A DNA stretch of 64,000 nucleotides from a virus. The stretch covers positions 64,001-128,000 of IMG/VR virus record IMGVR_UViG_3300028840_003497. One strand, given 5' to 3'. The position numbers were made by a program, and so were the translations under genes. Positions within the stretch are counted from its first letter, which is position 1. Each line of letters opens with the position of its first letter. The notes under the pieces were generated by a model that was not told the DNA's origin, ran no database searches, and was given only the letters and a program-made list of their open reading frames with translations. Below are positions 36,638-40,531 of this stretch, in pieces.

Positions 36638-39600
36638 TCAAAGCGTCCCCAGTTTCTTATAAAAACGCATCCTCCTCCGGTACTTTGGATTCAATTGAAC
36701 AATCATTTCGTCAACTACATCAACCACAATCGGCTGTGGTTTCTGCTTGCATTTCCCAGCACGCCAGGGACATGCCACCTCGCACTTTCCATCCTGCGGA
36801 AAGCACCACCTCTGAATACGACCCACTATTTGCTCAACATCGCTAATCGGAGTCGCCATCACCAGAACATCGATCGACGGAATGTCGAGGCCCTCCTCAC
36901 AATTATGCACAACAAAACCATCGCATAAAAAGTTAGACTCGCCCTCCATGGTAAAATCATAAACGTCCCTAGATCTAACACTTTCTACAGACACAACACG
37001 AACCCATAAAGCATCAGAATTAGACCACTCAAGCAACATTTCGTTATTGGTTGCATCTGCTACGGATTTCAACAGACTGCGATGGACACCGTTGCGATGA
37101 ATACTTCCACCCACCGGAACAGCCACGCTTCCTATGATATCTTTCTTTCGAAGACCCTGAGAACGCAAAACCCTCATCGCATGAATCCACTGCTCCTCTG
37201 GAATACGCAACCCAACTCCGTCTTCTGCTCTGTCAAGTTTGCACAGATCTGAAAGCATCTTCCTCTTTCGAGGCATCAAATAAGGACCAACAAAATCCAT
37301 CATTTTTTTAATCCAAAACATGCCAGCAACCTTAACAGTCCAATATCTCCTCCTTCTGACAGAATTAGAACGCTTCGCAGATCTAACAAAAGAAATAATC
37401 CCGTGCCCAAGTAACATATGTTGAACCTGATACGCCAATTTCCTACTTGAACTACAGTGAGAAATCTCAAGTTTTTTACGACCAACATTTCCATCGGTAT
37501 CTATAAGGGCCGCAATTAATGCACCGGCACTTTCTCGGTCACAAAACAGCAATCTATCCGACAACTTCTTCTCCCACGCCCGACATCCGTCCAAGCCATG
37601 ACTTTCGGCCAATTTGCGAAACTTAGACTTAACCCCACCACCATTCTTGCCACCCAAAACTACACGATATTTCCCAGGCTCCTTGTCCTTTTCGCATAAC
37701 GCTGCATTATATTCAGAAAGCAAAAACGACACATTATCCACAATATCTTTATCTATATTAAAAAAAGCAGCCTGACCACTAGCCAACTGAGAAGTGTTCC
37801 CATCGCCTATAAAATAACCCATCAATGCAGCCTCATTCACCTCCACATCACTTTTTCCGTCCAGTTGAGCATTGCCCGGAATCATAAGCCAATCCCCAAC
37901 CACAATCTCATCAGATCTCACCCACCCTCGCTGCGACATAACACGATGATCTCCGCTCACAGATAAAGACATCACAGATCTATTATCACCACCTCTCCCG
38001 CATGATATTTTAAGAACATCTTTCACCCCCGTTTTCCATGCCTTAACAATCTTATTCGGAACAAAATCTCCAACACCCTCCCTGTAAGATAACAGCCTAA
38101 CACCCTCCTCCCCGCACAAATCCCTTACGAAGAGAGGTTCGCCAGTATCGGCATCGACAACAATACTATCGCCATCAACACACATCTGTTTTGTAGCAAA
38201 AATAACATTCGCAGATTCGGCATGCGCCAACTCTTCGGACGTCCTGTTTTTGAGCTTCATCTCTCCTTTACGATGCAGAATATTCCCACGCTTCCCACGC
38301 TTCGTTTCCTTCCACACCTCGCCACTGAACCACTGCCCGGTGTAGAAATCGATCCTCGGAACGAAGTCCAAATCGAGCCCGAACAGAATGCCGCCAAGCT
38401 GCTCGGCCATCTCCTTGAGGTGTTCCAGCCGCTCACTGACGACCATGAGCTTCCGACCGGCCTGGACCGCCTTCACCATGTCGTCCACGATGTGCCGCGT
38501 CCTGAATTTGTCGGCAGCGAGCTGGTTAACGATCTGGCCACTGTTTAAATTGTCGATCGATACTTGGTACTTGCCACGGGAGATCCTCTTAAGAGTTGAA
38601 TCCGTGATAACCCTCCGCAGCTTCGGACGCATCATCTTCGTATGTACCGAGTATGTGATCGGAGATATGTGCTTAAAGAAAACGTCCTGCGAGCCGTCCT
38701 TGCGACGTGGAGTCGCCGTAACACCCAATCTCCATGCTGCCTTGAACCGAGGAATGATACCAGCCCACGATCCAGCCCCGACGCGGTGGCAATTATGAAC
38801 GACCGCCCCTGTTTCAAGGATGTAAGAAGGATGCCCAGAAACATTCAGGTTGTAAACACGGACTCGATCTCCCTCAGTACAGATGGCAAATCGCTCAAGA
38901 TCCTCTCGTTTGAGAACCTCAACACTTTCCACCCTAATCCCATTAAGCATCGACCTTTTTTTGCATCCTGCTCCCGACGACTGAGAAGTTTGTGTGACCG
39001 ACCGTCCACCTCCACAGCCACCATCCTCTTCCTGTTCGCCAAGTCCACTTTGTAGGACGCGGGATATCTGTCTGGATTCACGCGCTTGACCATCGTTCTG
39101 ATCGCCACCTCTGGCTTCCACCCTTTCCCGAGAGCATCCAAGAGCATCAATTGAGGAACGGTCATTCCGGTCCCGTTTCCACCCCTCACCGGAGGACGAT
39201 GCCCCATGCTCCTCAAAGAACGAGACACCTTCCTTCTCACCTTTTCTAATGACATCGGATTCGACACTTTCATCCGACGCGAAGCTTCCTCTCGCACCTG
39301 CGGATTCTTCTTGTGCCATTTTAATACAGCGTCGGAAAGCTTCTTCGTAAAAAGGCTGGAATTCTCCGACATCCATTTCCGCTGACAGGATGTCGAACAA
39401 AATCTTGTCCTCTTCTGCTTCGTCTCCACCACCCCGCAGTACTCGCACATCGCCTGCCGCTTGCGCCTCGCCGCTCCAGAACACTTCCTCGAACAATACT
39501 TCCGACCGGCCCTCACAGAATTCGGCTTCCTGCACATCTGACACGACTGAGTTTTTGCACGTCCCATATCTCCGCATCATACCAATGCACTCTGAGTGCG

Positions 39601-40531
39601 TCAATACAGAACACCCAGCAAGATCCTTGGCATGGACCCACCCATTGTTCGTCAAAAATGGATGTTCTGCTGTGCAAATTACCTCTGTACTATCAGCAAA
39701 CGAAACCACCCGTAAATCTGACACATCGATAAGCCTGCTCCCGACGCTTTTAACACGCCCGTGACCAACAGCATTCAGCACCACATCGCCATCACGAATT
39801 TCCTCGATGGGAACTTCTTCATCTGGCGTAAGAACATGAGTCCCCTTCACAAAACATTCGTCCGAGACTATTGTACCAAAGTGAGAGTACATCGATTCTG
39901 GATACTTGAACCCATCATCACGAGATAGAGACTGTAACAACGCGATAACGAAGTCCGGCGGATCCCCATTGCTCTCCAGCTCATCGAACTCGCAGCGCGA
40001 CTGCTTGATGATCCCCACACGCGCGTCCGGCATCATCCCGAGAATTCGATTCTTCCACTGCTGAACCAAGAAGTCTTTATGAACAAGGATCAGCGTTCTC
40101 CGCCCCATTCTCCGAGCAAACTCTAAAGCCATTATTGTCTTACCCGCACCAGGAGGAGCCTGAAGAAGAGCGCCGCCCCACTTCCTGTTCTCCAGGGCAA
40201 GTGCTAGTTCATCTAGAGCATCCGCCTGCTCAGCAAACGGACCCTCGGCTTTGAAATTCGTCTGAAGATCTTGCATGGGCTTGCCGTATGAGACGTCCAG
40301 AACCTCCTCATGATCCCCAGAACGTCGCTCCAGATAGTAGTATCTCGGAACACCGATGAGACCCCTTTCGTCGTCCTCCTCGAACAAAAAAATGGGTTTC
40401 GGATCCTCCTTGGTCTGGATGTCCGTCGTCTTCCGTGGCTGAATCGTCAGTTCCTGCTTGATATTGTCAACCTGATACTTGTTCAACTCATCAAGCTGGA
40501 GCCAAGCCATACCAGAAATAATAACCTTCAA
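36638..40531 (-). CDS. SF2 DExH helicase (UvsW/A18-like) with two inteins
   Basis: APPGAGKT, DE|CH, TATPRRKDG, EGLDIP, QIVGRIQR. Confidence 0.92.
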   Translation of the reverse strand: MKVIISGMAWLQLDELNKYQVDNIKQELTIQPRKTTDIQTKEDPKPIFLFEEDDERGLIGVPRYYYLERRSGDHEEVLDVSYGKPMQDLQTNFKAEGPFAEQADALDELALALENRKWGGALLQAPPGAGKTIMALEFARRMGRRTLILVHKDFLVQQWKNRILGMMPDARVGIIKQSRCEFDELESNGDPPDFVIALLQSLSRDDGFKYPESMYSHFGTIVSDECFVKGTHVLTPDEEVPIEEIRDGDVVLNAVGHGRVKSVGSRLIDVSDLRVVSFADSTEVICTAEHPFLTNNGWVHAKDLAGCSVLTHSECIGMMRRYGTCKNSVVSDVQEAEFCEGRSEVLFEEVFWSGEAQAAGDVRVLRGGGDEAEEDKILFDILSAEMDVGEFQPFYEEAFRRCIKMAQEESAGARGSFASDESVESDVIRKGEKEGVSFFEEHGASSSGEGWKRDRNDRSSIDALGCSRERVEARGGDQNDGQARESRQISRVLQSGLGEQEEDGGCGGGRSVTQTSQSSGAGCKKRSMLNGIRVESVEVLKREDLERFAICTEGDRVRVYNLNVSGHPSYILETGAVVHNCHRVGAGSWAGIIPRFKAAWRLGVTATPRRKDGSQDVFFKHISPITYSVHTKMMRPKLRRVITDSTLKRISRGKYQVSIDNLNSGQIVNQLAADKFRTRHIVDDMVKAVQAGRKLMVVSERLEHLKEMAEQLGGILFGLDLDFVPRIDFYTGQWFSGEVWKETKRGKRGNILHRKGEMKLKNRTSEELAHAESANVIFATKQMCVDGDSIVVDADTGEPLFVRDLCGEEGVRLLSYREGVGDFVPNKIVKAWKTGVKDVLKISCGRGGDNRSVMSLSVSGDHRVMSQRGWVRSDEIVVGDWLMIPGNAQLDGKSDVEVNEAALMGYFIGDGNTSQLASGQAAFFNIDKDIVDNVSFLLSEYNAALCEKDKEPGKYRVVLGGKNGGGVKSKFRKLAESHGLDGCRAWEKKLSDRLLFCDRESAGALIAALIDTDGNVGRKKLEISHCSSSRKLAYQVQHMLLGHGIISFVRSAKRSNSVRRRRYWTVKVAGMFWIKKMMDFVGPYLMPRKRKMLSDLCKLDRAEDGVGLRIPEEQWIHAMRVLRSQGLRKKDIIGSVAVPVGGSIHRNGVHRSLLKSVADATNNEMLLEWSNSDALWVRVVSVESVRSRDVYDFTMEGESNFLCDGFVVHNCEEGLDIPSIDVLVMATPISDVEQIVGRIQRWCFPQDGKCEVACPWRAGKCKQKPQPIVVDVVDEMIVQLNPKYRRRMRFYKKLGTL
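36902..38182 (-). mobile_element. intein 2 of the helicase (427 aa, LAGLIDADG)
   Basis: CVDGDS, SGDHRV, GYFIGDG, ALIDTDG, VVHN|C. Confidence 0.92.
38845..39567 (-). CDS. DUF559/Vsr-like endonuclease nested in the +1 frame of intein 1
   Basis: YKVDLA, VEVDGRSH, QDAKK, GWKVLRFSN; N-terminal CxxC/CSxxC repeats; own promoter. Confidence 0.85.
   Translation of the reverse strand: MGRAKTQSCQMCRKPNSVRAGRKYCSRKCSGAARRKRQAMCEYCGVVETKQKRTRFCSTSCQRKWMSENSSLFTKKLSDAVLKWHKKNPQVREEASRRMKVSNPMSLEKVRRKVSRSLRSMGHRPPVRGGNGTGMTVPQLMLLDALGKGWKPEVAIRTMVKRVNPDRYPASYKVDLANRKRMVAVEVDGRSHKLLSRREQDAKKGRCLMGLGWKVLRFSNERILSDLPSVLREIESVFTT
39576..39604 (-). promoter_or_regulatory. internal sigma70 promoter for the nested endonuclease
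   Basis: TTGACG-17-TATGAT with extended TG; ATG 8 nt downstream. Confidence 0.75.

Follow-up and report, generated by a model that had tools for sequence, protein, structure and literature searches.

A candidate homing-endonuclease gene overprinted in the +1 frame on a helicase intein of a metagenome-assembled phage

Inteins whose endonuclease is encoded outside the intein frame have been described before. The endonuclease of the cyanobacterial (Synechocystis) dnaX intein lies outside the intein frame (Gorbalenya 1998, as cited in later work), and a recent study of the dnaX intein reported a LAGLIDADG-like enzyme in a second frame, together with frame-specific selection and a disordered in-frame region, and called the layout a rarity (bioRxiv 10.64898/2026.09.14.751524). 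Work on actinobacteriophage inteins reported LAGLIDADG and VSR-like enzymes encoded antisense, as well as frame-3 enzymes resembling endonuclease VII, and predicted further cases (bioRxiv 10.1101/2025.01.02.630785). In this study, we analysed a stretch of 64,000 nucleotides (nt), referred to as the window, which covers positions 64,001 to 128,000 of the IMG/VR record IMGVR_UViG_3300028840_003497. The record is a metagenome-assembled phage of 176 kb with terminal repeats, and the features of the window described here lie on its (-) strand. A helicase gene in the window contains two inteins, and it is quite probable that the loop of the first of them, intein 1, carries an overprinted free-standing gene for a homing endonuclease, on the same strand and in the +1 frame, with the intein still competent for splicing.

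Intein 1 resembles these non-canonical inteins in several ways. An endonuclease open reading frame (ORF) lies between the splicing halves, the in-frame reading of the same DNA is stop-free, without a recognisable fold and predicted to be disordered, and the alternative frame is under purifying selection; they are proposed to have arisen when a free-standing endonuclease gene invaded a mini-intein, and we would propose the same origin here. The features by which such inteins are recognised, namely a complete out-of-frame endonuclease ORF, no endonuclease in the intein frame and selection on both frames, were all found. Out-of-frame intein endonucleases are already known, and the notion that the arrangement is without precedent does not survive comparison with the three sources above. 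However, the published enzymes are of the LAGLIDADG (“+2ORF” or antisense), antisense VSR-like or frame-3 endonuclease VII-like types, whereas intein 1 has a same-strand, +1-frame zinc-finger/DUF559 nuclease. Its family also differs from the published cases in its hosts, which are helicase, SNF2 and clamp-loader genes interrupted at the Walker-B site DE/C (the slash marks the point of insertion), in its abundance (1082 clusters at 50% identity and, in searches capped at 80 loci per collection, no fewer than 125 nested loci, for a layout that had been called rare), and in a conserved promoter-like element of the leaderless type in the helicase branch. In the literature searched, no paper was found that links DUF559 to inteins in an overprinted manner, and the DUF559 type, the same-strand +1 layout, the host range, the abundance and the conserved promoter are undescribed there.

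Three other systems are close to this locus. Fractured genes, described by Dassa et al. 2009 (PMC2677866), have the two halves of a split intein separated by a free-standing gene for a Vsr-like or GIY-YIG endonuclease. As in those genes, the host of intein 1 is a phage DNA-metabolism gene, and the inserted gene belongs to the Vsr superfamily, has its own putative expression signals and overlaps the C-terminal intein half (IntC) with its 3' end; gp41-1, one of the split inteins of that study, is the best structural match of the intein 1 Hint domain. Unlike them, intein 1 has a continuous host frame, is in one piece and is predicted to splice in cis. I-Bth0305I, of the EDxHD family, is the characterised prototype of the Vsr-like free-standing endonucleases; it is encoded by a group I intron and carries NUMOD/helix-turn-helix (HTH) modules (PMC3239194). 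It shares with the nested nuclease an arrangement of N-terminal DNA-binding modules followed by a C-terminal Vsr-like catalytic domain, but the nested nuclease has FCS zinc fingers in place of NUMOD/HTH, belongs to Pfam DUF559 and is overprinted on an intein. The I-Bth0305I chain reads EVNG where the nested family reads EVDG. Finally, ShiLan-type insertions are out-of-frame HNH genes in phage methylases, for which leaderless initiation has been discussed (PMC11855218). There, too, an endonuclease gene is hidden in another frame of a host gene that stays open; however, such insertions lack a splicing domain and presumably remain in the host protein, while intein 1 would remove its filler.

The splicing parts of intein 1 and the nested nuclease

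The helicase gene (36638..40531) is a 1297-codon ORF of the phage superfamily 2 (SF2; ResIII/DExH) type, with a spliced extein of about 515 amino acids (aa). Intein 1 (38792..39856) comprises 355 of these codons, corresponding to helicase aa 226-580, and is inserted in motif II between DE and CH. Cys226 directly follows DE, block B reads T-A-E-H, blocks F and G read ...VYNLNV...VVHN, and the first residue after the intein is the Cys of CH. These are the features of a class-1 intein: an N-terminal nucleophile Cys, a block B TxxH, a terminal His-Asn pair, a Cys at +1 and a Hint fold. The Cys at the first position is nearly invariant across 113 relatives.

When the host frame was searched against Pfam, Hint_2, Intein_splicing and Vint were matched at both ends of intein 1 only, and the interior gave no Pfam family match. 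The N-terminal Hint part (39581..39856) matches the intN hidden Markov model (HMM) with E=6.7e-25 and has a confident AlphaFold2 (AF2) model; the C-terminal splicing part (38792..38941), consisting of the strand RVESVEV and blocks F and G, matches the intC HMM with E=4.5e-11, and its first 32 or so codons share DNA with the 3' end of the nuclease gene. In the AF2 model of the host frame, both Hint segments have pLDDT values (predicted local distance difference test) above 90, and the roughly 200 residues that they flank are below 50. Foldseek searches with the Hint part returned mini-intein structures, with the gp41-1 intein (6qaz, E=4e-7) at the top and the DnaB and RecA inteins also among the matches. 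From these data we infer that intein 1 is a working class-1 mini-intein at the Walker-B/motif II site (DE/CH) of the helicase. What lies between its splicing parts in the host frame, a filler of about 209 codons (38942..39568), is stop-free, rich in R, G, S and E, matches no family and is predicted to be disordered, with pLDDT below 50 over most of its length.

The same DNA in the +1 frame encodes a complete protein. The nested gene (38845..39567, stop codon included) specifies 240 aa followed by TGA, and its product (P0002) consists of two FCS zinc fingers, a helical linker and a catalytic domain of the Vsr/DUF559 type, which may belong with the EDxHD enzymes. The two fingers (CxxC...CxxxC; aa 9-29 and 41-61; 39385..39543) correspond to Pfam zf-FCS_1 and to PDB entries 2w0t and 2l8e. 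The match of the +1 ORF to Pfam zf-FCS is weak; Cys41, Cys44, Cys57 and Cys61 of the second finger are kept in at least 90% of family members, and the fingers are taken to be the DNA-binding module. The catalytic domain (38860..39186; GGNG...YKVD...EVDGxxH...D..KK...GWxVLRFxN) was identified by Pfam, conservation and fold. The +1 ORF matches DUF559 (PF04480) with E=1.8e-12 and 47.6 bits, compared to a gathering cut-off of 20.6, and D175, E186, D188, H192 and D201 are invariant in 80 family sequences. An AF2 model of the nuclease built from the family alignment has a mean pLDDT of 90.8. With its catalytic domain, Foldseek returned I-Bth0305I first (3r3p; probability 1.00, template modelling (TM) score 0.64 on the target), followed by the DUF559 protein 3hrl and Vsr. 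A single-sequence search of the PDB sequences did not reach 3r3p, but both the fold search and a profile search did; the profile gave E=8.6e-14 for 3hrl and E=6.7e-4 for 3r3p.

An earlier note on this DNA, made from the letters alone, had described normal splicing blocks around a non-globular interior without an endonuclease domain, and a complete 240-aa protein in the +1 frame with zinc-binding repeats and a DUF559/Vsr core. The Pfam, AF2 and Foldseek results agree with this description in full, and an HMM scan of both frames matched the nuclease family in the +1 frame only. Direct reading confirmed that both frames are open across the 723-nt overlap and that the overlap extends into block F, as the note had also said; the last 30 or so nuclease codons overlap the C-terminal Hint strands and the start of that block.

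Relatives of the element and selection on its two frames

Searched at the protein level, the +1 product gave 26 homologues of stand-alone length, related to it along almost their entire length. Among the loci encoding relatives, L002, L009, L010 and L011, from four sources ranging from GC-poor to GC-rich, all have the same order of parts: an N-terminal Hint part, filler with the nuclease in the +1 frame, and a C-terminal Hint part ending in HN followed by C or S. The nuclease profile was then used to search IMG/VR and the GTDB species genomes, from each of which the best 80 of about 300 confirmed relatives were taken. A nuclease was counted as nested when the host ORF was open for at least 100 codons upstream and at least 40 codons downstream of it. 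In 131 of the 143 strong-match loci the nuclease lies in the +1 frame of a long ORF, in none is it in the +2 relation, and in one (L004) it is in frame; the remaining loci are truncated contigs, free-standing genes or interrupted hosts. The host-frame segments matched Pfam Intein_splicing in 104 of 113 cases and a nuclease family in none of the 113. The host genes encode helicases (ResIII/DEAD), SNF2 ATPases, clamp-loader/DnaX-like proteins and other P-loop proteins, and in nearly all of them the insertion is at DE/C. The clusters counted above come from an exhaustive profile search at E<=1e-30, and nearly all of them contain proteins of 160-340 aa. The overprinted layout is the normal state of the zinc-finger/DUF559 nuclease family, with at least 125 unique nested loci, even though recent papers call out-of-frame intein endonucleases rare. 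Gene callers are unable to annotate the two frames together, so that databases probably contain split or wrongly labelled versions of these helicase, SNF2 and clamp-loader genes.

A few loci depart from this layout. L004 (2795-5290), an intein in a UvrD-like helicase, has the nuclease domain in frame and no zinc fingers, and it is the sole in-frame case among the 143 loci listed. Six family members (L031, L040, L116, L127, L140 and L159) have no intein HMM match nearby in any frame and are apparently free-standing. In L130 (2017-3000), the nuclease is in the +1 frame between the N-terminal intein half (IntN) and IntC, with 23 stops in the host frame, as in a fractured gene sensu Dassa et al. 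L003 (3667-4680) has the same arrangement with a single host-frame TGA and an ATG close behind it. Both look like fractured-gene or split-intein versions of the overprinted element.

We asked whether the open host frame could be due to chance by permuting synonymous codons within the nuclease ORF in 500 shuffles. Intein 1 has no stop in the host frame, compared to a mean of 12.4 expected, and none of the 500 shuffled sequences was stop-free. The third frame over the nested gene contains 15 stops (11.5 expected). The same was seen for the family, in which 125 of 133 unique nuclease sequences have a stop-free host frame, compared to 0.5 expected from synonymous shuffles, while the third frame contains 2075 stops, with 1880 expected, as chance predicts. 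The absence of stops relative to the shuffles therefore means that the open host frame is kept by selection.

Purifying selection acts on the nuclease frame as well. In four close pairs, the substitutions at nuclease-frame positions 1/2/3 number 4/4/18, 13/16/45, 24/20/68 and 38/30/100, and between the intein 1 nuclease and that of L176 they number 48/41/87; for further nearest relatives of intein 1, the numbers are 80/78/122 and 107/82/124. In every pair, the nuclease frame surpasses the host frame in amino acid identity (for example, 0.70 vs 0.47). The comparison of homologous inteins that the earlier note had proposed has thus given a conserved +1 ORF, an open host frame and substitutions that fall mainly at third positions of the +1 frame.

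Both frames are constrained only at the 3' end, where the nuclease motif GWxVLRFxN overlaps the intein strand R-V-x-S-V-E; there, the choice of Gly codon before the Trp yields a host-frame Val in 88% of members. Elsewhere, the Tyr of the invariant Tyr-Lys pair is forced to be TAC (TAC AAR), since with TAT the host frame would acquire a TAA. The hydrophobicity of the filler is not reduced relative to synonymous shuffles (0.251 vs 0.252), and its polar content is slightly above theirs (0.623 vs 0.603). Its richness in R, G, S and E comes about mostly automatically when a Lys/Arg-rich gene is read one base early, and not through additional selection. Two conserved host-frame motifs were considered and rejected: M-R-V-V-R, close to where the nuclease begins, is a shadow cast by the zinc finger CEWCG, and a nearly invariant L-Q is what the invariant Y-K becomes when read one base earlier. 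The family provides a large natural data set on two proteins that share one stretch of DNA, for which the forced TAC-AAR and the overlap of GWxVLRF with RVxSVE may serve as examples.

Expression of the nested gene

The nuclease frame has a stop three codons before the nested ATG at 39567 and ends in its own TGA. The stop before the ATG makes a fusion produced by frameshifting implausible. In most family members, the ATG is located 1-12 codons ahead of the first CxxC. Within the intein codons upstream of the gene is a sigma-70-like promoter element, TTGACG-17-(TG)TATGAT (39576..39604), with the ATG 8 nt downstream of TATGAT; it scores 10/12, the best in the region, and its sequence is as the earlier note had described it. 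The geometry TTGACN-16/17-TAnnnT-8 nt-ATG is kept in four orthologous inteins, namely intein 1, L176 (TTGACG-17-TATCAT-8-ATG), L173 (TTGACA-17-TATAAT-8-ATG, a perfect consensus) and L174 (TTGACT-16-TATAGT-8-ATG), all with at least 10/12 matches and an identical spacing of 8 nt to the ATG. The variation in the second hexamer falls at positions that are variable in real promoters. In L174 the TTGAC is in a different codon phase, where it codes for V-D instead of L-T, and this points to conservation of the promoter element at the nucleotide level. An inverted repeat in the promoter spacer (GCACTC-A-GAGTGC, about 39587..39599) is absent from L176, L173 and L174, and no role was given to it.

The explanation that competes best with such a promoter concerns only the mode of expression: ribosomes might initiate internally on the helicase mRNA to make the nuclease, and the resemblance to a promoter might be a by-product of the intein codons. 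This is possible, if on the doubtful side. A Shine-Dalgarno motif precedes the nested start in 47% of family members, compared to 13% of control ATGs, whereas a promoter-like site of at least 9/12 is present in only 12% of members. Several further points count against an internal promoter. Strong sigma-70-like sites are not enriched genome-wide (12, compared to 13.1 in shuffles), the four loci that keep the geometry are related to one another, and part of the promoter stretch also codes for conserved intein residues (L-T and I-G-I/M-M), with which the conserved hexamers overlap. Since there is no genome-wide enrichment, the argument for a promoter rests on its position and on its conservation in orthologues, and here the site in intein 1 does stand out: it alone among the strong sites of the genome has a TG extension, and it is placed exactly before the nested start. 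Internal initiation also accounts poorly for the common score and spacing in the four orthologous inteins and for the retention of TTGAC in another codon phase in L174. The GGAG of intein 1, only 2 nt from the nested ATG, is too close to be a good Shine-Dalgarno site; it counts against internal initiation here and, more generally, against the overprinted-gene reading. On balance, we lean slightly towards a functional internal promoter that would give a nearly leaderless mRNA. The proposal in the earlier note that the nuclease gene has its own promoter is strengthened by comparison within the helicase branch, where the geometry is kept in four orthologous inteins; most of the wider family has a Shine-Dalgarno site ahead of the nested ATG instead.

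Mobility, alternative explanations and origin of the element

Orthologues of the helicase, with N-exteins 45-82% identical to that of the gene studied here, show varied intein states. Some with 70-79% extein identity are intein-free and have an uninterrupted DECH; in others the DE site holds a mini or full intein, or an intein is present at the Walker-A site or at the site of intein 2. The nested zinc-finger/DUF559 gene is also present in L173 and L174 (extein identity about 51%), with nucleases 55% and 48% identical to that of intein 1. Its closest relative, in L176 (1217-1855), is about 70% identical over the aligned part and has lost the EVDG...H core by a 35-residue deletion, while both frames are still open; this looks like the decayed stage that is expected in a homing cycle, with the intein persisting. 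The two closest helicase alleles (exteins 76-78% identical) have at the same DE site an out-of-frame LAGLIDADG_2 ORF and an open host frame: in L172 (1023-2084) it is in the +2 frame (354 codons, E=3e-23), and in L175 (1109-2206) it is in the +1 frame (366 codons, E=2e-21). The patchy distribution and the decayed, free-standing, in-frame and fractured copies are signs of mobility and of a homing cycle.

Most likely, the two products are made as follows. A ribosome translating the helicase would read the nested DNA in frame 0 and produce the disordered filler, which has no stops and abounds in R, G, S and E, and protein splicing would then remove the filler together with the Hint domain and restore the helicase. 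The nuclease would be made separately from its own ATG, in the helicase lineage probably from the internal sigma-70-type promoter on a nearly leaderless mRNA, and in most other family members probably by initiation at an internal Shine-Dalgarno site. During co-infection, the nuclease may cut intein-less helicase alleles near the DECH codons, and recombinational repair would then copy the intein and the nested gene into the cut allele. We infer the splicing of the intein, the start of transcription, the translation of the nuclease and the specificity of cleavage from the sequence and its models. The view of the earlier note, that a free-standing nuclease uses the intein as an intron at the protein level, is thereby supported by the openness of the host frame, the conservation of the +1 frame and the pattern of substitutions. 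Some considerations weigh against a homing endonuclease under selection in this locus. What the nuclease would target in homing, and what type of cut it would make, are pure surmise, DUF559 proteins of unassigned role are common outside mobile elements, and the closest intact nuclease relative is only 55% identical, which leaves the intein 1 copy without an unsaturated estimate of the ratio of nonsynonymous to synonymous substitution rates (dN/dS).

The same abundance of DUF559 makes it conceivable that the nested gene is functional and separately expressed, but encodes a domesticated nuclease for repair, DNA processing, defence or counter-defence that happens to be lodged in an intein. In cellular genomes, DUF559 forms a large family with no assigned function (5790 clusters at E<=1e-10), and there are rhizobial matches. 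However, full-length relatives of the nuclease are almost always found in inteins at the nucleotide-binding motifs of several unrelated ATPases, and their occurrence among helicase orthologues is patchy. In addition, L176 has lost the catalytic core while its intein persists, the nearest solved fold is that of a proven homing endonuclease, and LAGLIDADG_2 occupies the same position in sister alleles. We therefore consider a role other than homing unlikely.

It is very improbable that the intein no longer splices and that the helicase is a decaying pseudogene with a leftover open frame. Two relatives, L003 and L130, do have host-frame stops (1 and 23, respectively). In the gene studied here, however, every catalytic splicing residue is intact and the frame is open for 1297 codons; stops are avoided far more than chance would allow, and this recurs throughout the family; and in the C-terminal Hint strand the choice among synonymous nuclease codons follows host-frame residues, as seen for the Val mentioned above. 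Finally, that the nuclease is really an in-frame intein domain, offset by compensating sequencing or assembly indels or by programmed +1/-1 frameshifting, is hardly credible despite the in-frame domain of L004 and the metagenomic source of the phage, as the +1 offset recurs in 125 unique, independently assembled loci (a layout common to more than 120 independent assemblies excludes the compensating errors that the earlier note had named as a threat), the nuclease frame is bounded by the stop before its ATG and by its own TGA, many relatives have Shine-Dalgarno sites before the ATG, and selection for an open host frame would serve no purpose if ribosomes left it.

If the nested gene is indeed a homing-endonuclease gene overprinted on intein 1, the locus may tell something about the origin of split inteins. 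We propose, tentatively and with some reserve, that overprinting is the single-piece counterpart, and possibly the precursor, of fractured genes, that the DE/C intein lineage is a general landing pad, and that its passenger in the helicase branch is self-promoted. An endonuclease gene landing in the loop of a mini-intein would either split the intein or stay as a second frame once stops had been cleared. The DE/C lineage would have received at least two families of nuclease genes, in two different frames: zinc-finger/DUF559 genes in the +1 frame and, in the closest helicase alleles, LAGLIDADG_2 genes in the +1 and +2 frames. With its own leaderless promoter, the passenger in the helicase branch would be an autonomous selfish gene, for which protein splicing does what RNA splicing does for genes carried in introns. 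In that case, a new classification would be needed for many inteins that are annotated as mini or decaying. The family, in any event, links single-piece inteins to split inteins. Its compact and possibly self-promoted nucleases with zinc-finger targeting modules could serve genome engineers, and mini-inteins that tolerate a disordered insert of 200 residues could serve protein engineers.

Some minor observations concern the helicase gene itself. The ORF as called mechanically begins at a TTG at 40531, and the database protein P0033 (1290 aa) begins at the ATG at 40510, which is the likely start. Megablast of the gene against deposited phage genomes gave no matches, and a pattern search of IMG/VR gave no close relatives of the N-extein, but a search at the protein level did recover the orthologues. 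Intein 2 (36902..38182; helicase aa 784-1210) has the ends C...HN followed by C and an in-frame LAGLIDADG_3 domain; as it is canonical, one helicase gene holds both the classical and the overprinted architectures. The orthologues P0042, P0044, P0051, P0054 and P0062 mark this helicase family as an intein hotspot. Several orthologues have an insert directly after the GK of the Walker-A motif, and its first residues, ALAHGEPVLT, suggest an intein with Ala at the first position.

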